Source: Escherichia coli (lineage in GTDB: Bacteria > Pseudomonadota > Gammaproteobacteria > Enterobacterales > Enterobacteriaceae). Taken from it: 64,000 nucleotides of DNA. The stretch lies in the NCBI RefSeq assembly GCF_003018235.1, contig NZ_CP027437.1. One strand, 5' to 3'. The notes below the pieces were generated by a model that was not told the DNA's origin, did not search any database, and was given only the letters and a program-made list of their open reading frames with translations. Positions 19,625-50,471 of the stretch are shown piece by piece (position 1 is the first letter of the stretch; each line of letters opens with the position of its first letter). Both the position numbers and the translations under genes were made by a program.

Positions 19625-20968
19625 ATGCATGTGCTTAACATTCTCTGGGTGGTATTCGGCATTGGTCTGATGCTGGTACTGAATTTGAAGTTCAAAATCA
19701 ATTCAATGGTGGCTTTGTTGGTGGCGGCGCTGTCCGTCGGGATGCTGGCGGGCATGGATTTGATGTCGCTGCTGCACACCATGAAAGCGGGCTTCGGCAA
19801 CACGCTGGGGGAACTGGCTATCATCGTGGTGTTCGGTGCGGTCATCGGTAAATTGATGGTCGACTCCGGCGCGGCGCACCAGATAGCGCATACGCTGCTG
19901 GCGCGTCTCGGTCTGCGCTATGTACAGCTGTCGGTGATTATCATCGGCCTGATTTTCGGTCTGGCGATGTTTTATGAAGTGGCCTTTATCATGTTAGCGC
20001 CGCTGGTTATTGTTATTGCCGCCGAAGCTAAAATTCCGTTCCTGAAACTGGCGATCCCGGCAGTAGCAGCTGCCACTACCGCACATTCACTGTTCCCACC
20101 GCAGCCGGGTCCGGTGGCGCTGGTGAATGCTTATGGCGCGGATATGGGGATGGTTTATATCTATGGCGTACTGGTGACGATCCCAAGTGTCATCTGCGCA
20201 GGTCTGATCCTGCCGAAGTTCCTCGGCAATCTTGAGCGCCCAACGCCATCATTCCTGAAAGCAGATCAACCGGTAGATATGAATAATCTGCCCTCTTTCG
20301 GCGTTTCGATTCTGGTGCCGCTGATCCCGGCGATCATTATGATCTCTACCACCATCGCCAATATCTGGCTGGTAAAAGATACCCCTGCCTGGGAAGTGGT
20401 TAACTTTATCGGTTCCTCGCCGATTGCAATGTTTATTGCGATGGTGGTTGCATTCGTACTCTTCGGCACCGCGCGCGGGCACGATATGCAGTGGGTGATG
20501 AACGCTTTTGAAAGCGCGGTGAAGAGTATTGCAATGGTGATTCTGATCATCGGTGCGGGTGGCGTGCTGAAGCAGACCATCATCGACACCGGCATTGGCG
20601 ACACCATCGGCATGTTGATGTCCCACGGCAATATCTCGCCCTACATCATGGCATGGCTGATCACCGTACTGATTCGTCTGGCGACGGGTCAGGGTGTCGT
20701 TTCGGCGATGACCGCTGCCGGGATTATCAGTGCAGCAATCCTTGATCCAGCAACTGGTCAGCTGGTTGGCGTGAATCCGGCGCTGCTGGTACTGGCGACG
20801 GCTGCGGGTTCCAACACCCTCACCCACATTAACGATGCATCTTTCTGGTTGTTCAAAGGTTACTTTGACCTGTCAGTAAAAGATACGTTGAAAACCTGGG
20901 GTCTGCTGGAGCTGGTCAACTCCGTGGTTGGGCTGATTATTGTGCTGATTATTAGCATGGTAGCGTAA
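19625..20968 (+). CDS. gntP: Fructuronate/gluconate transporter (GntP family)
   Basis: 447-aa hydrophobic ORF of the GntP permease family. Confidence 0.85.
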
Positions 20969-37708: not shown

Positions 37709-40246
37709 ATGATAAATGACCATGAAGAACTAGAACTTGCTAAAGCTCAGGCAAAAGAAATATGGAAGATCCTTGATTATGTTCGAGGAGCATCACCTAT
37801 ATCTAATTATCGCTCATTAGCGTATTCAATCTTCTTCGTACGCTATCTTCAATCCAATACAGGTCAGCATTTTGAGGCAGAAAGGTTCGACTCTTTTAAT
37901 GTCATCGCCCAGTATTCCTACGATCTTGTAAACTATGCCGTTCAACTTGGATTGATTCATAGCGACGTATCTAAATTCTTAATTTATTATTTAGAAAACA
38001 CACTCCGTTCATTTGTCAATATTGATGAGTCTTTTGTTCGTTATGCAATTAGAGATGGTCTACTCAATAAAACCCCTGCAATAGCGTCGCTTTCTTTATC
38101 AGAACTGGATTTACTTTTTGCCGAGAATGAAGGTAAGTCAGGAGGTGAGTTTTATACCCCTAGAGACGTCAACTTATTGGTTAAAATATTAGGATTGAGT
38201 TATCAACCAAAGTCAATATGTGACCCATTTGCAGGTGCTGGAAACACAGCATTTCCTTTTGCCAATACTGGTATTGAAAAAGTTAGGATTGATACTCAAG
38301 AAATTAATAGAGATGCTTACTTTAAACTAGTAATAAGTAGAGTCATCAGGAAAATAGAAGGTCGAGACTATTTCGGCGATTCCCTATCACAACCATTATA
38401 TCAAGAAAATAAATATGATCTGATAGTTTCTTTCCCACCTTTTGGCATGAAAATTCCTAAAGCCACTCGAAATAATATTTACTATAAAACAAGTAATAAG
38501 TGGCTGGATATTACTGAAATCTTGCCAGAAAGTAGAAGTGATTGGTTTATAACATTATCAATGCTTCCAGCCCTTTCTGAGGGGGGTAAGATACTAGTAG
38601 GTATGTCACTTGGGGCTTTGACAAGAGCAGGCTCTGAGGCAAAGGTTCGTGAGTATTTAGTCTCTCGCGGAATTATCGAACAAGTAATTCTTTTACCTAA
38701 AAATATTTATTACTCTACGGCTATCTCAACTGTACTTCTTGTCCTCAACTCAGGAACAAGTAACATAAATAACAGAAGTATTAAATTTGTAGATGCTTCA
38801 CTGTTTTACGAGCCTGCCCGTGGTCGAAACACCCTCACAACAAAAAATATAAATGAGATCGTAGAGGCTTGTCATAAAGATGGCCGATTTAGTATTAGTT
38901 CATCTCATACCCAAATAGCAAACAGAGACTTTAATTTAGATCCGTCTCTTTATGTACGTAAAGATCTCAAAATCAGTGAGGTTTCTTTAAAAAATTTTAG
39001 AGGATACTCTGACTTTAAAGTTTCGATACATCCTTCTTTAAATGTATTGGTTGGTGAGAACGGCGTCGGGAAAACTTCGATATTAGAAGCATTAGCATGT
39101 GGCCTTGGTCCTTTCCTTACTGCTATGCCTGATGCTAAAGGAAAACTGATAAAAAAATCAGATATCCATATAAGTTCAAAAGGAATCGCAAATTATGCTC
39201 GAATATCGATTGAAACAACATCAAGTTTAAGTTGGGATCTTGTGGCAAAGGGGGTTGATGTTTCCGAGCCCCCTAAGATAGGAACATCAGCATTAACTAG
39301 CTACGCTACTCATCTTGTAGATAGTCAGTCTGAATATCCACTCATTGCTTATTATGGGACTAACCGTGCTCTTACTTCTACCAGTTCTAAAGTTGCAATA
39401 AATCCATTCGAGAAAGAAAATCGTGGGGAAGGTTATGACTTTGCTTTAGATGCTAAAGTTAACTACGGCATCTTAAAGAACTGGTTTTCAAAAATAGAGG
39501 TTGATGAGCTTCGAAAACGTGATGAACTAAAAGACCATAAATTCATTCATCCGGCTAAGAGACTTGTTTCAGAGGCTGTTTACCAGATTGTTGATCGAGC
39601 TACATGCTTGGAGTTCGACAAAAATAGTAACGATGTTATGGTTCATTGGAAAAATGAGCAGGGAGAGTGCGTAAAGCTTACATTGGAACAACTAAGTGAA
39701 GGGTATAGAAATATGGTATCCCTGACCATTGACCTAGTGAGGCGTGCTTATTTACTTAATCCTACCAAACCGAAACCGCTAACAGTTAATGGGATCGTTT
39801 TAATTGATGAAATTGAACTTCACTTGCACCCTAGATGGCAGCAAAAGATTTTAAATGATCTTACTAAGCTGTTTAAGAATATTCAGTTTATTGTCACGAC
39901 ACATAGTCCTCAAGTCTTAACAACAATCAAAGCCGATTGTATCCGTATTGTTTCCGTCAATGCTAACGAAGCAAAATTAGTGACAGGAACTACTACTTAC
40001 GGTTCTGAAAGCTCAAGAATGTTGGAAGATGTTTTAGGTGGTAACAATCGCGCCCAACATCTTGATATTGTTAAAAAACTAAACCGTTATACAGAGTTAG
40101 TAGAGGCCGACAAATGGGATACCGATGAGGCATTAGAACTCAAAAAAGAGTTATATAAATGGGGTGGTCAGACAGAAGACGAGCTTCAAAAATTAGAAAC
40201 TGATATTCGAATTCGCGAGTTCGAGCGTGGCAATGAAAAAGATTAA
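37709..40246 (+). CDS. Fusion protein: N-terminal HsdM-like N6-adenine DNA methyltransferase domain plus C-terminal ABC/AAA_21-type ATPase domain (PtuA-like)
   Basis: 845-aa ORF. Methyltransferase motifs GGEFYTPRDV, ICDPFAGAGNTAF (motif I) and DLIVSFPPFG (motif IV region). ATPase motifs: Walker A VLVGENGVGKTS, signature-like LSEGYRNMVSL, Walker B VLIDEIELHLHP, H-loop FIVTTHSP. Confidence 0.75.
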   Translation: MINDHEELELAKAQAKEIWKILDYVRGASPISNYRSLAYSIFFVRYLQSNTGQHFEAERFDSFNVIAQYSYDLVNYAVQLGLIHSDVSKFLIYYLENTLRSFVNIDESFVRYAIRDGLLNKTPAIASLSLSELDLLFAENEGKSGGEFYTPRDVNLLVKILGLSYQPKSICDPFAGAGNTAFPFANTGIEKVRIDTQEINRDAYFKLVISRVIRKIEGRDYFGDSLSQPLYQENKYDLIVSFPPFGMKIPKATRNNIYYKTSNKWLDITEILPESRSDWFITLSMLPALSEGGKILVGMSLGALTRAGSEAKVREYLVSRGIIEQVILLPKNIYYSTAISTVLLVLNSGTSNINNRSIKFVDASLFYEPARGRNTLTTKNINEIVEACHKDGRFSISSSHTQIANRDFNLDPSLYVRKDLKISEVSLKNFRGYSDFKVSIHPSLNVLVGENGVGKTSILEALACGLGPFLTAMPDAKGKLIKKSDIHISSKGIANYARISIETTSSLSWDLVAKGVDVSEPPKIGTSALTSYATHLVDSQSEYPLIAYYGTNRALTSTSSKVAINPFEKENRGEGYDFALDAKVNYGILKNWFSKIEVDELRKRDELKDHKFIHPAKRLVSEAVYQIVDRATCLEFDKNSNDVMVHWKNEQGECVKLTLEQLSEGYRNMVSLTIDLVRRAYLLNPTKPKPLTVNGIVLIDEIELHLHPRWQQKILNDLTKLFKNIQFIVTTHSPQVLTTIKADCIRIVSVNANEAKLVTGTTTYGSESSRMLEDVLGGNNRAQHLDIVKKLNRYTELVEADKWDTDEALELKKELYKWGGQTEDELQKLETDIRIREFERGNEKD

Positions 40247-41021
40247 TAAGCTAGATGAGCCAAATCGGCTTGGTGTGTTCAAGGCTACTCATCCTAATGC
40301 TTTGTGGGAGAGGGATAAAAACTCAATTGAAGAGGCTTTCCGTTGTTGCATTGCCAGATATCAAGAAACTCTACAACAATTACGTACGGACCAAGGTAAT
40401 TTATGTGCATATTGTGAACAGGATTTAATGTCTGGAACTAATGGGGCATTAGATGACTGCCGTATTGAGCATTTTCATCCGAAATCTAAACGTGAACAGG
40501 GAGAACCTAATTGGGCTTTGGAATGGAGCAATTTGTTAGTTGTTTGCTGTGGCGGAAATCAAAGTAAAGTTGTTAATCCTGGGCAAAGATTTGATGCTGA
40601 TCCCAAAAATTACTCTTGCGATGTACCAAAGAGTGACAAAATTTTAGATACCATTATATTAAATCCACTTAATTTACCTGAATTAAATATCTGGAAGTTT
40701 CATCGTTCTTCGGGGCAAATTTCCGTAAATGAAGATTCCTGTTTAGAATTTGGTATAAGTGTTGAAATGGCACACCAAACAATTAAAGAATTGAATTTAA
40801 ATTCCCCTCGATTAATTAGATTTCGAAAGGCTATTCTAAATAATCTCAACATTTTAATAACAGAAAGGCTGAAGAAGGGACAAACGGTAGAGCAAGCTGT
40901 TAGATTTATTGCCATATCACTCTTTAGAAAAAATGGAGCAGGTGATTGGCCCTCTTTTTTTAGTGCAACACGATATTATTTAGGTCAGCAGGCTGAGCTT
41001 GTTTTAGCCCAACCTATTTAA
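40233..41021 (+). CDS. HNH endonuclease (PtuB/TIGR02646-like), translationally coupled to the upstream fusion gene
   Basis: 262 aa from MKKINKLDEP. HNH motifs CAYCE, CRIEHFHPKS, NLLVVCCGGN. Its start overlaps the 3' end of the upstream gene by 14 nt. Confidence 0.7.
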   Translation: MKKINKLDEPNRLGVFKATHPNALWERDKNSIEEAFRCCIARYQETLQQLRTDQGNLCAYCEQDLMSGTNGALDDCRIEHFHPKSKREQGEPNWALEWSNLLVVCCGGNQSKVVNPGQRFDADPKNYSCDVPKSDKILDTIILNPLNLPELNIWKFHRSSGQISVNEDSCLEFGISVEMAHQTIKELNLNSPRLIRFRKAILNNLNILITERLKKGQTVEQAVRFIAISLFRKNGAGDWPSFFSATRYYLGQQAELVLAQPI

Positions 41022-41081: not shown

Positions 41082-42515
41082 CTACAGGGGCGATGCTAGC
41101 TCAGAGAACCAAGCGTGAACTGATCTGTAAAATGTGCTGATTGACCAAAACTCACTGCATGCAGCAACTAACAGAATGACCACTAAGAGGATCACTACAG
41201 TAGAAGTCATTCTTTCCACACGGCAGTATGATCCCATCGCATCTTTTACAGGTTGTCTAGCCAGTTCCTGATAATCCAGCTCATCCAGAAATCCGTATAA
41301 TTTAGTTCTCCAGGTGGTTCTAACTCTTTCAAGTAATGAAATTGTTTGCCTATTAATATAGACAGACATTCCATAGGAAATAACTATATAAACCGCGATA
41401 GCACAAAAAACCAAAGCGTAAATATTTTGCAAACCAACTGATTTTACTGCATCCAGACTGTAGCGAATAACCAAGACACTAATTACAAGAGCCATATCTT
41501 TCCATAAGGAAGAGGACAAATCTCGGGATTGCTGAATGATCTTTTGTGTATCTTCAGCCAGCGTTTTCCGCAAATCACCCAAGGATTTCATAGTATCTTT
41601 ACCACCAGTCCTGATATGGGCCTTATACATTAACCGTGCAGACTCCAAAGCTGATGAGAGTCGAAGCATCACTCCCTCACAAAAGTTCAGGTCTGAAGGC
41701 CACTCTCTAGCCAGCTCGCTGGACAAAAACGTATGTTTCAGCTCAGTTTCATTCCCCTCTAGAAAAATCCACTTTGCCGCTTCCTGGATAATATCAAAAG
41801 CAGGTAACGCTGCCGTCTCATCGCCGAATGCTATTTTTCTGGGAGGCTTTCCCGCAAGCCCCACCATCATTTCGTCAGCAAAAAAAAGTTCATTTGCAAA
41901 ACATTTCAGCAACTCTCGGCATCCTAGCAATTTCCATATCTTGATTGCTTCATCAGTCTTCTCACTACAAGTTTCAAGTATCCAAGGGGCAATGGCATCT
42001 GGAGGAAGAAAAGTTGTTGAATAACATTTGATGATACTTTTTGTTACTGAAGGCTTAGTGATAGCTGTTGCATCACCAGCACTCACCGGCTGTATCTCCT
42101 TCCATGGATGCACATACCAACTTATTGTCTGAAAGCCTTCAGTAATAAACAGCCCATAAATATGTTTGTACCGACAGAGTTTGCTATCTTGAAGTAAAAA
42201 AGTGCGCCATCCTTCTAAGGTAAAAAGCCTCAGTATCCCCGGAATTTCATTATAAGTGATGGTAATGTAGTGCTTCTGCCCTGGGACCCCCTCTCTCGGA
42301 TGAATAACATCTCTGCTCTCATCGATAAAAACGATCTTGAGATCTTCCGCATGTACATCCACTATTTCTCCCCATAAATCAAGGGATTCACTATCCATTG
42401 TGGCGGAAATAAAAAGCTTATGGATAGACACCTGCTGGTCCTCTGTGATCACAAGGTCAGATAAATGTCGTGAGTGGCATATAGCCTTACCGATTTTTTC
42501 CAATATCGATATCAT
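41082..42515 (-). CDS. Hypothetical protein with two C-terminal transmembrane helices (membrane-anchored), second gene of a two-gene cassette
   Basis: 477-aa ORF. Hydrophobic stretches LVISVLVIRYSL...IYALVFCAIAVYIVISYGMSVYI and TSTVVILLVVILLVAACSEFW. No recognisable catalytic motif. Confidence 0.5.
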   Translation of the reverse strand: MISILEKIGKAICHSRHLSDLVITEDQQVSIHKLFISATMDSESLDLWGEIVDVHAEDLKIVFIDESRDVIHPREGVPGQKHYITITYNEIPGILRLFTLEGWRTFLLQDSKLCRYKHIYGLFITEGFQTISWYVHPWKEIQPVSAGDATAITKPSVTKSIIKCYSTTFLPPDAIAPWILETCSEKTDEAIKIWKLLGCRELLKCFANELFFADEMMVGLAGKPPRKIAFGDETAALPAFDIIQEAAKWIFLEGNETELKHTFLSSELAREWPSDLNFCEGVMLRLSSALESARLMYKAHIRTGGKDTMKSLGDLRKTLAEDTQKIIQQSRDLSSSLWKDMALVISVLVIRYSLDAVKSVGLQNIYALVFCAIAVYIVISYGMSVYINRQTISLLERVRTTWRTKLYGFLDELDYQELARQPVKDAMGSYCRVERMTSTVVILLVVILLVAACSEFWSISTFYRSVHAWFSELASPL

Positions 42516-43548
42516 CTGTTACCAATCCTGCAGTCACAATTACAATTCGTTTTCGCCCGTCTTCCATATTTTCTACTTCTGGTGCATTGTCTTCATCGTA
42601 GATAATGATTACATCTTCCAATGTTTCCAGTTTTCTCTTCCGGGGCTTCTGAATGTTATCGGGAATGATGCGGAAAGATTCACCTGAAATTCCTAAATCC
42701 TTTATTTTACGAAAAAAATACTTAACCAGAGGGTGTTCTTCCTCCAAAGGACCAAAAATCTGGGTCAACAATGGCAGTGCTTCATCAGTATTAAAATCCT
42801 GTTCGCCATGGCGTAAAGTTTCATAAATTTTGTTTACTCCGCTGCGCTTGATCTCTTCAGGTAGTAAGTTTCGATGCTTTTTATATACATCTTTTAATAC
42901 AGTAACTAGCTTATCGCTGAGCTGAGTTGGGTCATTGACGCGCTTAACCTGTAGAAATCGTTCAAAATAGACAGAGATGTTAGTACGTTTGCTGCGATCT
43001 CGTACGACAACTAATCCGCCCGGCAAATCTTCATTCAGCCGTACCAGTGCGATTTTCTGCATGGCTTCGGCTTTTTTAACGAAACTTTCGCGAAAGCGTT
43101 CGAGTTTAGGTACCTGAAACTCATCTCCTTCAACATCCAGCACATAACGGACTACATCTTCATTGTCATACTTAATCAACGCATACAGTTTCTCATCGTT
43201 GAGTGTATGAAGTTCAAAAAGGAAAAAAACGCCCATACTGGCATTCTTGGTATGGTGGTGAGACTGAAAATCGCTTGCCAATAAGGAGGATTGCTCAGTA
43301 AAGCAGCCGATATCGGTGTCTGCATGTTCCCTGATGATCCTCAGGATTCGCTCTGTATTTGACAACTCCTTAAAATGAAACATATTGCCACTAACTGCAG
43401 ATTTGATACGTTCCAGAAAGAAATCAACATGCTCCGGAGGGGAAATTTCGCTGAGTAAAACAGGGACTTCCAACTCACCGCCAACCACATGAAAAATCAT
43501 CCTTTTTATTGATAATGCATTGATTTCTTCATCCGTTAAAAAACTCAT
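42487..43548 (-). CDS. Hypothetical cytoplasmic protein (353 aa), first gene of the two-gene cassette; weak NdpA/YejK-like resemblance at most
   Basis: ATG start confirmed. Overlaps the downstream ORF by 29 nt. Acidic C-terminus. No confident domain assignment. Confidence 0.5.
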   Translation of the reverse strand: MSFLTDEEINALSIKRMIFHVVGGELEVPVLLSEISPPEHVDFFLERIKSAVSGNMFHFKELSNTERILRIIREHADTDIGCFTEQSSLLASDFQSHHHTKNASMGVFFLFELHTLNDEKLYALIKYDNEDVVRYVLDVEGDEFQVPKLERFRESFVKKAEAMQKIALVRLNEDLPGGLVVVRDRSKRTNISVYFERFLQVKRVNDPTQLSDKLVTVLKDVYKKHRNLLPEEIKRSGVNKIYETLRHGEQDFNTDEALPLLTQIFGPLEEEHPLVKYFFRKIKDLGISGESFRIIPDNIQKPRKRKLETLEDVIIIYDEDNAPEVENMEDGRKRIVIVTAGLVTDDIDIGKNR

Positions 43549-43744: not shown

Positions 43745-44998
43745 TTACATTATTAGGGCAAAATCAAACGGACTCACCCCCTTCTCCCGATTCGCATCCA
43801 GATAATTTGCCCACCACTGCAGCATCAACCTACGCTCCCCAAGATGTTCCGCCTTATGGATGTATGCCGCCCGCACAGAGCTACGCTCCTGATGGCTCAT
43901 CTGCCGCTCCACTGCATTCCTCGACCACAATCCTGATTCAATAAGTGAACTACAGGCCATCGTCCTGAAACCATGCCCACAGACTTCCGTTTTGGTGTCA
44001 TAGCCCATAACTCGCAAAGCCTTGTTCACCGTATTCTCACTCATCGGCTTATGCGGATCGTGATCGCCCACAAAAATCAGCTCTCGATTTCCATTCATGC
44101 TTTTGATCTTTTCCAAAATAGCTAAGGCCTGCCGCGATAAGGGTACAAGATGGGGAGTTCGCATCTTCGAACCACGCTGAGAATGTTTAACACCGTCCAA
44201 CGGTTCACGCTCACCGGGGATCGTCCACATGGCCGTTTCAAAATCCACTTCTGACCAACGGGCAAAGCGCAGTTCGCTTGAACGGATGAAAACTAACAAA
44301 GTGAGTTCGACAGCCAGTCGAGTTAACGGCCTGCCGGAGTAATGATCAATGCGGTGAAGTAATTCAGGTATGCGGTTAAGCTCCAGAGCCGCACGATGCT
44401 GTCTTTTAGCAGTAGCAACCGCACCGGTAATCTCTTGCGCGGGGTTGTAGTCGATTAAGCCGCTCTGAACGGCAAAGCGCATAATCGCGGTAGTTCGCTG
44501 CTGTAAACGGGCGGCGACTTCAAGACGTCCGGATGACTCCACCGCTTTAATGGGTACAAGAAGATCCCGAGTCTTAAGCTCTGCAATGTTCCGCTTACCG
44601 ATAGCAGCAAAGAGATTATCTTCTAGGCTTTTCAATACACGAGCACTATGCGATGCAGACCACTTCTGATTACTGGCATGCCAGTCTCTGACGACCACTT
44701 CAAACGTTATCGCCTCTTGCTCCTGTTCTACCTTAACCGCTTTCTTGTTTTCACTGGGATCGACGCCGTTCGCTAAAAGCTTACGCGCTTCGTCTCGCCG
44801 CGATCGAGCATCAGCTAACGAAACTTCAGGATACTTCCCTAGCGCCAGCATCTTCTCTTTACCACCGAAACGATAACGAAGCCGCCAGTATTTGGAGCCG
44901 TTAGGGTGAACCAGCAAAACCATGCCTTCACCATCAGTAAGTTTATAGGCTTTTGCTTCAGGCTTTGCCGAACGAACCTTCACATCACTCAGAGCCAT
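43745..44998 (-). CDS. int: P4-family tyrosine integrase
   Basis: 417 aa from MALSDVKVRSAKPEAKAYKLTDGEGMVLLVHPNGSKYWRLRYRFGGKEKMLALGKYP (P4-type integrase N-terminus). Catalytic region HGFRTMA...Y. Lies directly beside the tRNA-Leu 3' end. Confidence 0.9.
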   Translation of the reverse strand: MALSDVKVRSAKPEAKAYKLTDGEGMVLLVHPNGSKYWRLRYRFGGKEKMLALGKYPEVSLADARSRRDEARKLLANGVDPSENKKAVKVEQEQEAITFEVVVRDWHASNQKWSASHSARVLKSLEDNLFAAIGKRNIAELKTRDLLVPIKAVESSGRLEVAARLQQRTTAIMRFAVQSGLIDYNPAQEITGAVATAKRQHRAALELNRIPELLHRIDHYSGRPLTRLAVELTLLVFIRSSELRFARWSEVDFETAMWTIPGEREPLDGVKHSQRGSKMRTPHLVPLSRQALAILEKIKSMNGNRELIFVGDHDPHKPMSENTVNKALRVMGYDTKTEVCGHGFRTMACSSLIESGLWSRNAVERQMSHQERSSVRAAYIHKAEHLGERRLMLQWWANYLDANREKGVSPFDFALIM

Positions 44999-45196
44999 GA
45001 TGAATATCCTTTCAAGGGTTCTGTGTGGGTACAAACATTATCGAACCGGGATATACCCGCAGTTGTACCCGCATCAGTAAGTTGATGTAGATTGAATCAG
45101 GTTGACTTAGGTTGAGTGAAAAAGCGAGGAAAGCCTTGCGGATACTGGATTTCAGGCATAAAAAAAGACCTCAGTTGAGGTCTATTTACATACTTA

Positions 45197-45281
45197 TGGT
45201 GCCGAAGGCCGGACTCGAACCGGCACGTATTTCTACGGTTGATTTTGAATCAACTGCGTCTACCGATTTCGCCACTTCGGC
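45197..45281 (-). tRNA. leuX: tRNA-Leu (anticodon CAA)
   Basis: The minus-strand sequence reads GCCGAAGTGGCGAAATCGGTAGACGCAGTTGATTCAAAATCAACCGTAGAAATACGTGCCGGTTCGAGTCCGGCCTTCGGCACCA (85 nt), with a CAA anticodon loop and a CCA end. Confidence 0.9.
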
Positions 45282-45476
45282 ACTGAAGAGGTATGCGGAA
45301 AACGTTGTGGATTATACCTGTCGCACGCCACCATGCAAGCGCCAGCTTGCTCGCACCTCGCTAAGTGCTGAAATTTTCAGCATTGCATACAGTGATGTGT
45401 AACCTTTGTCACACTCCAGGCACCCCGCCCTGCCATGCTCTACACTTCCCAGACAACACCAGAGAAGGACCAAAAA

Positions 45477-46496
45477 ATGTCGATGATAAAAAGCTATGCT
45501 GCAAAAGAAGCGGGCGGCGAACTGGAAGTTTATGAGTACGATCCCGGTGAACTGAAGCCACAAGATGTTGAAGTGCAGGTGGATTACTGCGGGATCTGTC
45601 ATTCCGATCTGTCAATGATCGATAACGAATGGGGATTTTCACAATATCCACTGGTTGCCGGGCATGAGGTGATTGGTCGCGTAGTGGCGCTCGGGAGTGC
45701 CGCGCAGGATAAAGGTTTGCAGGTCGGTCAGCGTGTCGGGATTGGCTGGACGGCACGCAGCTGCGGGCATTGCGATGCCTGTATTAGCGGTAATCAGATC
45801 AACTGCGAGCAAGGTGCGGTGCCGACGATTATGAATCGCGGTGGCTTTGCCGAGAAGTTGCGTGCGGACTGGCAATGGGTGATTCCACTGCCAGAAAATA
45901 TCGACATTGAATCTGCCGGACCGCTGTTGTGCGGCGGTATCACGGTCTTTAAACCGCTGTTGATGCACCATATCACTGCCACCAGCCGCGTTGGGGTAAT
46001 TGGTATTGGCGGGCTGGGGCATATAGCTATAAAACTTCTGCACGCAATGGGATGCGAGGTGACAGCCTTTAGTTCTAATCCGGCGAAAGAGCAGGAAGTG
46101 CTGGCGATGGGTGCCGATAAAGTGGTGAATAGCCGCGATCCACAGGCACTGAAAGCACTGGCGGGGCAGTTTGATCTCATTATCAACACCGTCAACGTCA
46201 GCCTCGACTGGCAGCCTTATTTTGAGGCGCTGACGTATGGCGGTAATTTCCACACCGTCGGTGCGGTTCTCACGCCGTTGCCGGTTCCGGCCTTTACGCT
46301 GATTGCGGGCGATCGCAGTGTCTCTGGCTCTGCTACCGGCACGCCCTATGAGTTGCGTAAGCTGATGCGCTTTGCCGCCCGCAGCAAGGTTGCGCCGACC
46401 ACCGAACTGTTCCCGATGTCGAAAATTAACGACGCCATCCAGCATGTGCGCGACGGTAAGGCGTGTTACCGCGTGGTTCTGAAAGCCGACTTCTGA
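45477..46496 (+). CDS. ahr: NADPH-dependent aldehyde reductase (zinc-type alcohol dehydrogenase)
   Basis: 339 aa from [14 protein letters not shown]. Zn-ADH motifs GHEVIGRV and GIGGLGH. Confidence 0.85.
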
Positions 46497-46625
46497 TCCC
46501 TTTGCCGGGTGCCTGTCGCCCGGCGTTTAAATCTCTTTGGAAGGCGTCTCGCAATCTGCTGAATTTAGCGGTGAAGAGTGCGCAGCCGTTGCCTATACTC
46601 CAGGCAGGAAACTGGAGGATATCTC

Positions 46626-48128
46626 ATGAGCGAACCCCTGTTAATTGCCCGCACGTCGGACACAGAACTGTTTTTATTGCCGGGAATGGCGAATCGTCAC
46701 GGGCTGATTACTGGCGCAACGGGGACGGGTAAAACCGTTACGCTGCAAAAGCTGGCGGAGTCATTGTCGGAAATCGGTGTTCCGGTGTTTATGGCCGATG
46801 TGAAAGGTGATTTAACGGGAGTTGCGGAGGAAGGTACATCTTCGGAAAAACTGCTCGCAAGGCTTAAAAATATCGGCGTAAATGACTGGCAACCTCATGC
46901 TAATCCGGTGGTGGTGTGGGATATCTTTGGCGAGAAAGGCCACCCAGTGCGGGCGACGGTTTCGGATTTGGGGCCTCTGTTGCTGGCGCGACTGTTGAAT
47001 CTCAACGATGTGCAATCTGGCGTGCTGAATATTATCTTCCGCATTGCGGACGATCAGGGATTGTTGCTGCTCGACTTTAAAGATTTGCGGGCGATTACCC
47101 AGTACATCGGCGATAACGCCAAATCCTTCCAGAATCAGTACGGTAATATCAGTAGCGCATCGGTTGGTGCCATCCAGCGCGGGCTGTTATCGCTGGAACA
47201 GCAAGGCGCGGCGCACTTTTTTGGTGAGCCGATGCTGGATATCAAAGACTGGATGCGTACCGATGCCAACGGTAAAGGCGTTATCAATATCCTCAGCGCC
47301 GAGAAGCTTTATCAGATGCCGAAACTGTACGCCGCCAGCCTGCTGTGGATGCTTTCAGAGTTATATGAACAATTGCCTGAAGCGGGCGATCTGGAGAAAC
47401 CAAAACTGGTGTTTTTCTTCGACGAAGCACATCTGCTGTTTAACGATGCGCCACAGGTACTGCTGGATAAGATTGAGCAGGTGATAAGGCTTATTCGCTC
47501 AAAAGGCGTGGGCGTCTGGTTCGTTTCGCAAAACCCGTCAGATATTCCGGATAATGTGCTCGGACAGCTAGGTAATCGCGTTCAACACGCTTTGCGGGCT
47601 TTTACGCCCAAAGATCAGAAAGCAGTAAAAGCTGCGGCGCAAACCATGCGGGCCAATCCGGCGTTTGATACCGAAAAGGCAATCCAGGAACTGGGGATCG
47701 GCGAGGCGTTAATCTCGTTTCTCGATGCGAAAGGAAGCCCTTCAGTGGTGGAACGGGCGATGGTGATTGCCCCCTGTTCACGAATGGGGCCGGTGACGGA
47801 AGATGAGCGTAATGGCTTGATTAATCACTCCCCGGTGTATGGCAAGTACGAGGATGACGTGGACCGGGAATCCGCCTATGAGATGTTGCAAAAAGGCTTT
47901 CAGGCCAGTACCGAGCAGCAAAATAATCCTCCCGCGAAAGGGAAAGAGGTGGCGGTGGATGACGGTATTCTTGGTGGATTGAAGGATATTTTGTTTGGCA
48001 CTACCGGACCACGCGGCGGGAAGAAAGATGGTGTGGTGCAAACAATGGCGAAAAGCGCCGCCCGCCAGGTGACGAATCAGATTGTGCGTGGGATGTTGGG
48101 GAGTTTGCTGGGGGGGAGAAAAAGGTAA
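46626..48128 (+). CDS. yjgR: DUF853-family P-loop NTPase YjgR
   Basis: 500 aa from [10 protein letters not shown]. Walker A GATGTGKT. Confidence 0.8.
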
Positions 48129-48140
48129 GTCAGGTGCGAT

Positions 48141-48200
48141 TTGTCTTTGCCTGATGCGACGCTGGCGCGCTTTATCATGCCTAAACTACTGCAATATATT
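48141..48200. repeat. REP element plus conserved tail TGCAATATATTGAATTT
   Basis: gcctgatgcgacgctggcgcgctttatcatgcctaa followed by ctgcaatatattgaattt, the same tail as at 9380-9397. Confidence 0.7.
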
Positions 48201-48288
48201 GAATTTTCATGATTTTTCAGGCATGAACGAAGCACACTTTGCTAACAATAATAAAGGGAGCTTTCGCTCCCTTTATTCGTTCATCAGG

Positions 48289-49371
48289 TTACGATTTTCT
48301 CATTAACAGCCACAGGCTGATTAAGAAGAAGCTGGCGCTTGGCAACAGTGCGCCGATGATCGGCGGGATGCCATAAACCAACGTCAGCGGGCCGAAGATC
48401 TGGTCCAGTACGTAGAAGACAAAACCGAAGCTAATACCAGTGACCACACGCACGCCCATCGGTACGCTACGCAGTGGGCCAAAGATGAACGACAGCGCCA
48501 TCAGCATCATCACCGCCACGGATAGCGGCTGGAAGATTTTGCTCCACATGTTGAGCTGATAACGTCCGGCATCCTGACCGCTCGACTTCAGATACTTCAC
48601 ATAGTTGTGCAAACCGCTGATAGAGAGTGCATCCGGGTCCAGCGCCACCACGCCCAGTTTGTCTGGCGTGAGGTTGGTTTTCCAGGTGCCGCTCACCGTC
48701 TGCGAACCGGTGATCTGTTTCGGATTGGTCAAATCAGATTCATCAACCTGCGACAGACGCCAGACTTTATGTTCCGGGTCAAACTTCGCGGTAGCGGCAT
48801 AGCGTACGGATTGCAGACGACGATTCTCGTTAAAGGCATAAATACTGATGCCACCTAACTCTTCGTCACCTTTAACCCGCTCAATGTAGACGAAGTTGTT
48901 GCCATCTTTCGCCCATAAACCTTGCTGGGTAGAGAGCAACGAGCCGCCGTACATCGCCTGCGCACGGTAGTTACGCGCCATCTGCTCGCCCTGCGGCGCG
49001 ACCCATTCACCAATCGCCATCGTCAGCAAGACCAGCGGAATGGCGGTTTTCATCACCGACAGCGCAACCTGCATACGGGTAAAACCAGAAGCCTGCATCA
49101 CCACCAGTTCGCTGCGCTGCGCCAGCATCCCAAGACCAAGCAACGCCCCAAGCAGAGCCGCCATCGGGAAGAAGATTTGCACATCTTTCGGCACGCTCAG
49201 CAAGGTATACATTCCTGCGCCTAACGCGTCGTAACTCCCCTGCCCGGCTTTTTTCAGCTGATCGACAAATTTGATAATGCCCGACAGCGACACCAGCATG
49301 AACAGCGTCATCATGATGGTGGTGAAAATAGTTTTACCGATATAGCGGTCAAGTACGCCAAAAGGTTGCAT
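48289..49371 (-). CDS. lptG: LPS export ABC transporter permease LptG
   Basis: 360 aa from MQPFGVLDRYIGKTIF. Confidence 0.9.
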   Translation of the reverse strand: MQPFGVLDRYIGKTIFTTIMMTLFMLVSLSGIIKFVDQLKKAGQGSYDALGAGMYTLLSVPKDVQIFFPMAALLGALLGLGMLAQRSELVVMQASGFTRMQVALSVMKTAIPLVLLTMAIGEWVAPQGEQMARNYRAQAMYGGSLLSTQQGLWAKDGNNFVYIERVKGDEELGGISIYAFNENRRLQSVRYAATAKFDPEHKVWRLSQVDESDLTNPKQITGSQTVSGTWKTNLTPDKLGVVALDPDALSISGLHNYVKYLKSSGQDAGRYQLNMWSKIFQPLSVAVMMLMALSFIFGPLRSVPMGVRVVTGISFGFVFYVLDQIFGPLTLVYGIPPIIGALLPSASFFLISLWLLMRKS

Positions 49372-50471
49372 CACACCGCTCCTTTACGCGAAAAACTGGC
49401 GCGCAGGCGGCGGACCGGCACGGTGTCCCAAAGGTTGAGAACAATCGCCAAAGCCAGATAAATCAGGTTAACGGTCCACATCCACAGCGTCGGGTCCAGC
49501 TTACCTTTACCACCGTTCGATTTCAGGGAGGTCTGGATCAGGAAGAAAAGTAGATACAGCAGCATGGCTGGCAGCATCGACAGTACGCGTCCCTGACGCG
49601 GGTTAACCACGCTCAGCGGTACGACCATAAGCGCCATCATAAACACGGTGAATACCAACGTGATACGCCAGTTCAGTTCTGCGCGGGCACGATCGGTGTC
49701 AGTGTTCCACAATGTGCGCATGTCCATCTGGTCGGTATCGTTCGGGTCGAGCGCCACCGCCTGGTGACCAATGATCGCCTGATAATCCTGGAAATCCGTA
49801 ATGCGGAAATCACGTAACAGTGCAGTGCCTTCGAAGCGCGTTCCCTGGTTGAGAGTGACGACCTGGGAGCCGTCGCGCAGCTGGGTTAAATGTCCGGAAT
49901 CGGCCACCACCACAGAAGGACGTGCATTACCTTTTGGTCGAATTTGCGCGAGGAACACATCTTTGAAATCGCTGCCGTCAACGCTTTCGATGAACAGCAC
50001 CGAGCTGCCATTAGTCGCTTGCTGGAATTGCCCTTGCGCCAGCGCCGCCATGCCAGGGTTCGCTTTCGCTTCTGCTAACACTTCATCCTGATGACGCGAT
50101 GACCACGGTCCCGCCCACATCACGTTAACCGCCGCGACGATTGCCGTGAATACCGCAAGGATCATTGCCGCTTTCACCAGAACCGCTTTGCTCAGGCCGC
50201 AGGCATGCATTACCGTAATTTCACTTTCGGTATACAGTTTGCCCAGCGTCATCAGCAGCCCGAGGAACAGGCTTAATGGCAGGATAAGCTGCGCCATTTC
50301 CGGCACGCCCAACCCGAGAAGGGAGAGCACCAGATTCGCCGGAATATCGCCGTCAACCGCTGCGCCGAGGATCCTCACTAACTTTTGACAGAAGAAGATC
50401 AAAAGCAAGATGAAGAGTATCGCCAGCTGGCTTTTGAGCGTCTCCCGCACCAGATATCTTATGATTATCAC
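49371..50471 (-). CDS. lptF: LPS export ABC transporter permease LptF
   Basis: 366 aa from MIIIRYLVRETLKSQL. Its stop overlaps the lptG start by 1 nt. Confidence 0.9.
   Translation of the reverse strand: MIIIRYLVRETLKSQLAILFILLLIFFCQKLVRILGAAVDGDIPANLVLSLLGLGVPEMAQLILPLSLFLGLLMTLGKLYTESEITVMHACGLSKAVLVKAAMILAVFTAIVAAVNVMWAGPWSSRHQDEVLAEAKANPGMAALAQGQFQQATNGSSVLFIESVDGSDFKDVFLAQIRPKGNARPSVVVADSGHLTQLRDGSQVVTLNQGTRFEGTALLRDFRITDFQDYQAIIGHQAVALDPNDTDQMDMRTLWNTDTDRARAELNWRITLVFTVFMMALMVVPLSVVNPRQGRVLSMLPAMLLYLLFFLIQTSLKSNGGKGKLDPTLWMWTVNLIYLALAIVLNLWDTVPVRRLRASFSRKGAV

Follow-up and report, generated by a model that had tools for sequence, protein, structure and literature searches.

The junction between ahr and yjgR at positions 46497-46625 of the window, the 64,000-nucleotide stretch of Escherichia coli DNA analysed here, is very probably an old and intact empty-site (idn-minus) allele residing in an E. 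coli-type chromosome, and not the outcome of a recent idn deletion. Its spacer holds 90 bp that are missing from idn-plus genomes and that are orthologous to the corresponding spacers of E. albertii and Citrobacter werkmanii, which argues against a recent deletion. The spacer is an ordinary intact intergenic region, in which an ahr hairpin is followed by a conserved block, a TATACT hexamer, a ribosome-binding site and yjgR, and in idn-plus strains an idnK/idnDOTR cassette of about 5.1 kb stands in place of the first 90 bp. Homologous recombination in the leuX hot region appears to have moved both alleles from lineage to lineage within E. coli. Most E. coli have the empty ahr-yjgR site, which is the usual arrangement and an already known polymorphism. 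As a widespread difference in accessory-gene content between E. coli strains, it carries little weight alone; what we add here is the exact breakpoint, an intact and probably old spacer allele, and population frequencies.

The ahr-yjgR junction and its surroundings

Read directly from the sequence, the last base of the ahr stop codon (TGA) is 46496 and yjgR opens with an ATG at 46626, leaving a spacer of exactly 129 bp (46497-46625, plus strand), so that the first-pass annotation, which had stated that a 129-bp spacer alone separates the two genes, gave the correct coordinates. Both genes are adjacent and co-oriented between leuX and lptG, in the order leuX-ahr-yjgR-lptGF-pepA-holC-valS, and RefSeq annotation of other idn-minus genomes agrees with this layout; in the closest genomes it places the same two genes on either side of the same featureless 129-bp gap. 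Since the junction is a gene-order fact, a chance test is not applicable to it, and its recurrence in 3211-3212 independent complete genomes indicates that it is not an assembly artefact.

The left boundary of the locus is leuX, the gene for tRNA-Leu(CAA) (45197-45281, minus strand; identified by ARAGORN and by the Rfam tRNA model with 59.4 bits), which is 100% identical to K-12 leuX and is an island-integration site, with an integrase gene further left. The next gene, ahr (yjgB; 45477-46496, plus strand), is intact and encodes an NADPH-dependent aldehyde reductase that scored 552 bits against the NCBIfam Ahr equivalog NF047908, whose cut-off is 470 bits. Because the profile match starts at residue 15 of a 353-aa ORF, the true start was placed at 45477, giving a protein of 339 aa with 99.1% identity to K-12 Ahr (95.6% at the DNA level). 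On the other side of the spacer, yjgR (46626-48128, plus strand) is likewise intact and encodes a 500-aa HerA-like P-loop ATPase (Pfam HerA_C, formerly DUF853, 1.6e-253) with 94.3% DNA identity and about 98.6-98.8% protein identity to K-12. The conserved right-hand synteny anchor is formed by lptG and lptF (48289-50471, minus strand; NCBIfam LptG, 456 bits), both of whose proteins are 100% identical to those of K-12. Over lptG-valS, practically every E. coli genome matches the window at 95-99% identity, which indicates an E. coli-type chromosome. Additionally, the intergenic region between yjgR and lptG contains, at 48177-48216 on the minus strand, a sub-threshold Rfam match to the sRNA ES036 (CssrF), with 29.9 bits and E = 0.0044 against a gathering score of 37.6 bits.

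To the left of the locus, the window carries a small leuX island in which an 845-aa fusion protein (37709-41021, plus strand) has an N-6 DNA methylase domain at residues 137-418 and, fused to it, a PtuA-type AAA ATPase at residues 420-843. The ATPase part matched PADLOC PtuA at 4.7e-106 and is followed by a PtuB HNH protein (1.9e-100), whose gene RefSeq names 'retron system putative HNH endonuclease'; by these profile matches, the two proteins make up a Septu-like defence pair in which a methyltransferase is fused to the N terminus of the ATPase. Two further island genes lie between this pair and the integrase (41082-43548, minus strand): the 477-aa protein gave no match in Pfam, NCBIfam or PADLOC, and the 353-aa protein gave a weak match to the nucleoid-associated NA37 family (1.3e-12). 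Most of the 21-45 kb part of the window is covered in only one of the 5426 complete E. coli genomes (CFSAN018748).

The absence of idn at this site, also reported in the first-pass annotation, extends to the whole window. Word-7 blastn with the K-12 idn block against the 64 kb returned only the 39-bp leader shared with K-12 and a 68-bp match between the paralogues GntP and IdnT, and tblastn with the Idn proteins returned only paralogues, namely GntP as the IdnT paralogue (40%; gntP gene, 19625-20968), an SDR protein at about 62.4-63.1 kb (27%) and Ahr against IdnD. Neither blastn nor tblastn detected an idn gene or idn gene fragment at the junction, and none of idnK, idnD, idnO, idnT and idnR was found within the 64-kb window, which consequently carries no GntII locus. 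GntII (idn) is a subsidiary route for L-idonate and 5-ketogluconate; the main gluconate genes are sited elsewhere in the genome, and gntP is in the window. On established pathway knowledge, the strain is most likely devoid of the GntII route for L-idonate and 5-ketogluconate.

Spacer anatomy and the replaced segment

The K-12 gene order, read from NC_000913.3, is valS-holC-pepA-lptF-lptG-yjgR-idnR-idnT-idnO-idnD-idnK-ahr-leuX, and the placement of idnRTODK between yjgR and ahr in K-12, as given in the first-pass annotation, is therefore correct. In K-12, idnK is convergent with ahr, with 3 bp between its end and the ahr stop codon, and yjgR begins 77 bp past the end of idnR, in the same orientation. 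Of the window spacer, the first 90 bp (46497-46586, plus strand) are limited to idn-minus genomes and matched nothing significantly in the 18-kb K-12 locus, whereas idn-plus genomes match the spacer only at positions 91-129 (46587-46625). These last 39 bp (plus strand), common to idn-plus and idn-minus genomes and 100% identical to K-12, form the yjgR 5' leader. What replaces the first 90 bp in idn-plus genomes is a segment of about 5.1 kb that comprises idnK, idnDOTR and about 38 bp after idnR. The difference between idn-plus and idn-minus alleles is a replacement, with 90 bp on one side and about 5.1 kb on the other, and no simple deletion.

Within the 90-bp segment, the terminator scan identified a terminator-like hairpin with a G+C-rich stem of 9 bp (46503-46525, plus strand), 7 nt past the ahr stop codon. 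Its fold has an energy of about -16 kcal/mol in the window, and E. coli, E. albertii and C. werkmanii all have a fold at this position, with energies of about -16 to -19.5 kcal/mol and modest z-scores of -1.3 to -2.0. Directly after the stem stands GTTT, ACTT or GATA, and the tail that follows is T-rich, interrupted and not conserved, reading GUUUAAAUCUCUUU in the window, ACUUAAAU in DETEC and O157 and GAUAAAAU in E. albertii. The hairpin probably ends or stabilises the ahr transcript; its U-tract is weak and variable. Further downstream, the block AATTTAGCGGTGAAGAGTGCG (46562-46582, plus strand) is conserved at 21 of 21 positions in C. werkmanii and at 20 of 21 in E. albertii and does not occur in idn-plus genomes, and we regard it as a candidate yjgR upstream control sequence.

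The shared leader contains a -10-like hexamer, TATACT (46594-46599, plus strand), which is invariant in the genera compared and represents a candidate yjgR -10 element, followed by GGAGGA (46614-46619, plus strand), the yjgR ribosome-binding site. Also in the leader, GTTGCCTATACTCCA does not vary among Escherichia, Citrobacter, Enterobacter and Leclercia. No plus-strand promoter of the sigma-70 type passed a consensus scan of positions 45000-47000, and no -35 element was found there, so the yjgR promoter stays putative. An inverted repeat, CTCCAG-N8-CTGGAG (46599-46619), overlaps the ribosome-binding site; it is found in Escherichia and Citrobacter and missing in Enterobacter and Leclercia, so that a conserved regulatory structure is improbable here.

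Two other readings of the spacer were considered and rejected. A structured RNA was discarded after an Rfam search of 44500-48500 gave no match in the spacer, its sole matches being leuX and the sub-threshold ES036 (CssrF) one, and the fold of the whole spacer gave a z-score of -0.87. A deletion scar or target-site duplication was discarded as well: the sole likeness between the 90 bp and K-12 is the 9-nt CTTTGCCGG near the junction, which adjoins both junction types and is not significant (E = 4.4). The identity at CTTTGCCGG could be a remnant of the ancestral spacer in idn-plus alleles; MAFFT set the idn-plus TCTCTTTG against another copy in the spacer, and the microhomology is thus ambiguous.

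Related genera and the age of the two alleles

For the comparison with other genera, scanning contigs with YjgR gave eight usable Enterobacterales loci among the matches listed, which were mostly from Betaproteobacteria and included neither E. fergusonii nor Salmonella. A Salmonella-type locus was reached through a search for IdnD homologues, its IdnD belonging to a cluster named Salmonella enterica. The outgroup set is composed of few taxa, with E. fergusonii and the cryptic Escherichia clades outside it.

In this set, the site is also empty in E. albertii NBRC 107761, whose orthologous 129-bp spacer is 94.6% identical to that of the window and shares the hairpin and TATACT, and in C. werkmanii NBRC 105721, whose orthologous spacer of 136 bp is 73.5% identical and shares the 21-nt block and TATACT. 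In C. werkmanii the hairpin is likewise in place, with a stem whose sequence differs through compensatory changes, and the spacers of the two taxa have diverged about as much as one expects between species and between genera, respectively. More distantly, Enterobacter cloacae and Leclercia have CGCAA-N7-AATT(T/G)A (AATTKA) at kept spacing upstream of yjgR, before the common GTTGCCTATACT motif, although their likeness to the spacer consists of short blocks. That these two genera share yjgR-upstream blocks without having idn here suggests that the idn-minus upstream sequence is ancestral.

The slot itself is occupied in Enterobacter. Both in E. cloacae (locus L006, 8217-9863) and in Enterobacter sp. 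Ag1 (L007, 8224-9930), a gene encoding 548-568 aa on the opposite strand fills the space between ahr and yjgR, and judging from the translation its product looks like a Dak-like (dihydroxyacetone kinase-like) protein. In Leclercia (L008), the ahr-yjgR gap is about 1.9 kb, the same size as in Enterobacter, and probably holds a like gene. Together with the idn-plus and the empty loci, Enterobacter indicates that the same intergenic site holds different cargo in different genera. The slots of Enterobacter and Leclercia are flanked, like that of the Salmonella-type locus, by ahr at one end and by the GTTGCCTATACT motif or what remains of it at the other, but they differ in the cargo.

Turning to the idn-plus loci, Citrobacter sp. 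FP75 has the K-12 organisation and the same right junction, and the Salmonella-type locus reads leuX-ahr-idnK-idnDOTR and then lptG, with yjgR missing. After idnR, this latter locus (L091, 9339-9545) contains a degenerate yjgR-upstream motif (TTGCCTGTGCT) and REP-like repeats, followed by lptG. The right idn-plus junction, CTCTTT..GGAC and then RTTGCCTATACT, is identical in K-12, Citrobacter sp. FP75 and the Salmonella-type locus, and the idn DNA identity among these three genera is 78-81%, in parallel with 80-84% for ahr and 85-86% for lptG. Kluyvera intermedia carries the idn cassette in an unrelated context, where homology to K-12 stops at the coding boundaries.

Given that the junctions are fixed and each allele occurs in more than one genus, we infer that both alleles are old, each of single origin. 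The empty site probably represents the ancestral-type allele rather than the product of a loss from a K-12-like state, and the idn-plus allele would have arisen most simply if a portable cassette was inserted and 76-90 bp of spacer were lost, a moderately supported reading in which the direction of the change is unproven. The empty allele could also be the derived one, if an ancestor with both idn and the full spacer had undergone one old and precise excision that produced the idn-minus allele, and the idn-plus allele had separately lost 76-90 bp. Such a history would suit the presence of idn-plus in Escherichia, Citrobacter and a Salmonella-type genome, with a divergence that parallels that of the host genes, and the resemblance of CTTTGCCGG by the idn-plus right junction to the start of the idn-minus spacer; however, this microhomology is not significant, idn and the 90 bp were never seen together in one allele, two events are needed instead of one insertion-with-deletion, and Enterobacter and Leclercia have parts of the yjgR-upstream spacer and no idn at this site. 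We consider a derived empty allele unlikely.

Taking the empty site as an old allele, a broader possibility, which we put forward tentatively and hold to be rather doubtful, is that the presence/absence polymorphism has been long-lived across genera and predates the Escherichia-Citrobacter-Salmonella split, by coexistence or exchange, each allele having its own yjgR upstream control. If this were true, yjgR would keep the 21-nt block and sit behind the ahr hairpin in idn-minus strains; in idn-plus strains, yjgR, 77 bp behind idnR, could, speculatively, get read-through from the idonate-induced idnDOTR.

The empty site within E. coli and relative to K-12

Population counts were taken over 5426 complete E. 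coli genomes. In 3212 of them (about 59%) ahr and yjgR are contiguous, and 3211 have the full 129-bp spacer, with 95-100% identity over at least 80% of its length and no annotated feature. The idn cluster is found in 2055 genomes, always on the chromosome and nearly always in a single copy, and no copies were found on plasmids among the 5426. Comparison with reference genomes thus makes the empty site the majority state, with 3212 genomes against 2055 that are idn-plus. A third state of the locus is present in about 147 of the 5426 genomes, in which ahr is cut to a 236-bp pseudogene fragment (8746-8981 in locus L083, from E. coli AHM8C160RI) near an intact yjgR, and no more than the last 79 bp or so of the spacer are kept, with about 86% identity.

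The description of this junction as a known variable locus agrees with the literature, where idn is already treated as accessory (PMC8545132, PMC5369007). According to a pangenome table, idn genes are carried by 83% of pks-positive genomes and by about 31% of pks-negative ones (PMC8545132), and idnK is missing from ST131 H30 and H22 strains and present in the H41 strain SE15 (PMC5369007).

The contiguous, idn-plus and ahr-truncated classes together account for 5414 of the 5426 genomes, so very few idn-minus genomes can carry idn anywhere else. This bears on whether the strain might hold idn at another place in its genome and not be idn-negative at all, as the portability of the cassette, with its unrelated site in Kluyvera, and the 64 kb of genome covered by our search would allow. 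Against this, the classes are nearly complementary (3212 + 2055 + about 147), genomes that match the 39-bp leader alone number about 2064, nearly the 2055 with idn, every inspected idn-plus E. coli locus lies at this site and no plasmid copies were found, and we judge a second location very improbable. Least probable of all, and largely refuted, is a recent strain-specific deletion of idnK-idnDOTR from a K-12-like ancestor with the 129-bp spacer as its scar: K-12 and 2055 of the 5426 genomes do have idn at exactly this site and the 9-nt CTTTGCCGG adjoins both junction types, but 90 bp of the spacer do not exist in the idn-plus locus, so that deletion cannot have made it, the same spacer occurs in 3211 genomes and has orthologues in E. 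albertii and C. werkmanii, and no fragment of any idn gene is left in the window.

The flanks of the empty site are mosaic. Between E. coli strains, ahr and yjgR differ by 2-7%, with some 300-bp patches only about 90% identical (window positions 45477-48128 compared with L001, L002 and L084-L089), whereas in the same comparison identity stays at about 98-100% for lptF, lptG (98.6%) and the idn genes. The best complete RefSeq genome over ahr-yjgR reaches 98.0% identity. A link between the class of ahr/yjgR allele and idn status was considered and rejected, since the window ahr is nearer to that of the idn-plus strain E5 (98.0%) than to those of several idn-minus strains (only 94-95%). The locus falls in a leuX-centred hot region of phylogenetic incongruence that spans 4421-4618 kb in K-12 coordinates (PMC2617782). 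A mosaic of ahr and yjgR alleles that does not track idn, in a recombination-prone region around leuX, makes idn status a poor lineage marker; the first-pass suggestion that the locus is useful mainly for strain typing consequently stands as regards its variability, and its typing value is limited.

The closest known systems include other idn-minus E. coli such as O157:H7 G5295, DETEC-S792 and AMSHJX01, with which the window shares a featureless 129-bp spacer (95-100% identity) and the gene order. It differs from them in that the flanking ahr and yjgR alleles diverge by up to 5-6% among idn-minus strains and in that the leuX island at the left varies by strain. The reference for the idn-plus state is the GntII or L-idonate locus of K-12 MG1655, credited to Bausch et al. 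1998 where it is cited in PMC3251573. The window has leuX, ahr, yjgR, lptGF and pepA in common with this locus, in the same orientation and synteny, as well as the last 39 bp before yjgR, without a single difference. K-12 is without the 90 bp of native yjgR-upstream sequence that most E. coli carry, a minor point for those who work on yjgR or ahr. The window, in turn, is without all five idn genes, and has 90 bp of sequence peculiar to idn-minus genomes where K-12 has about 5.1 kb.
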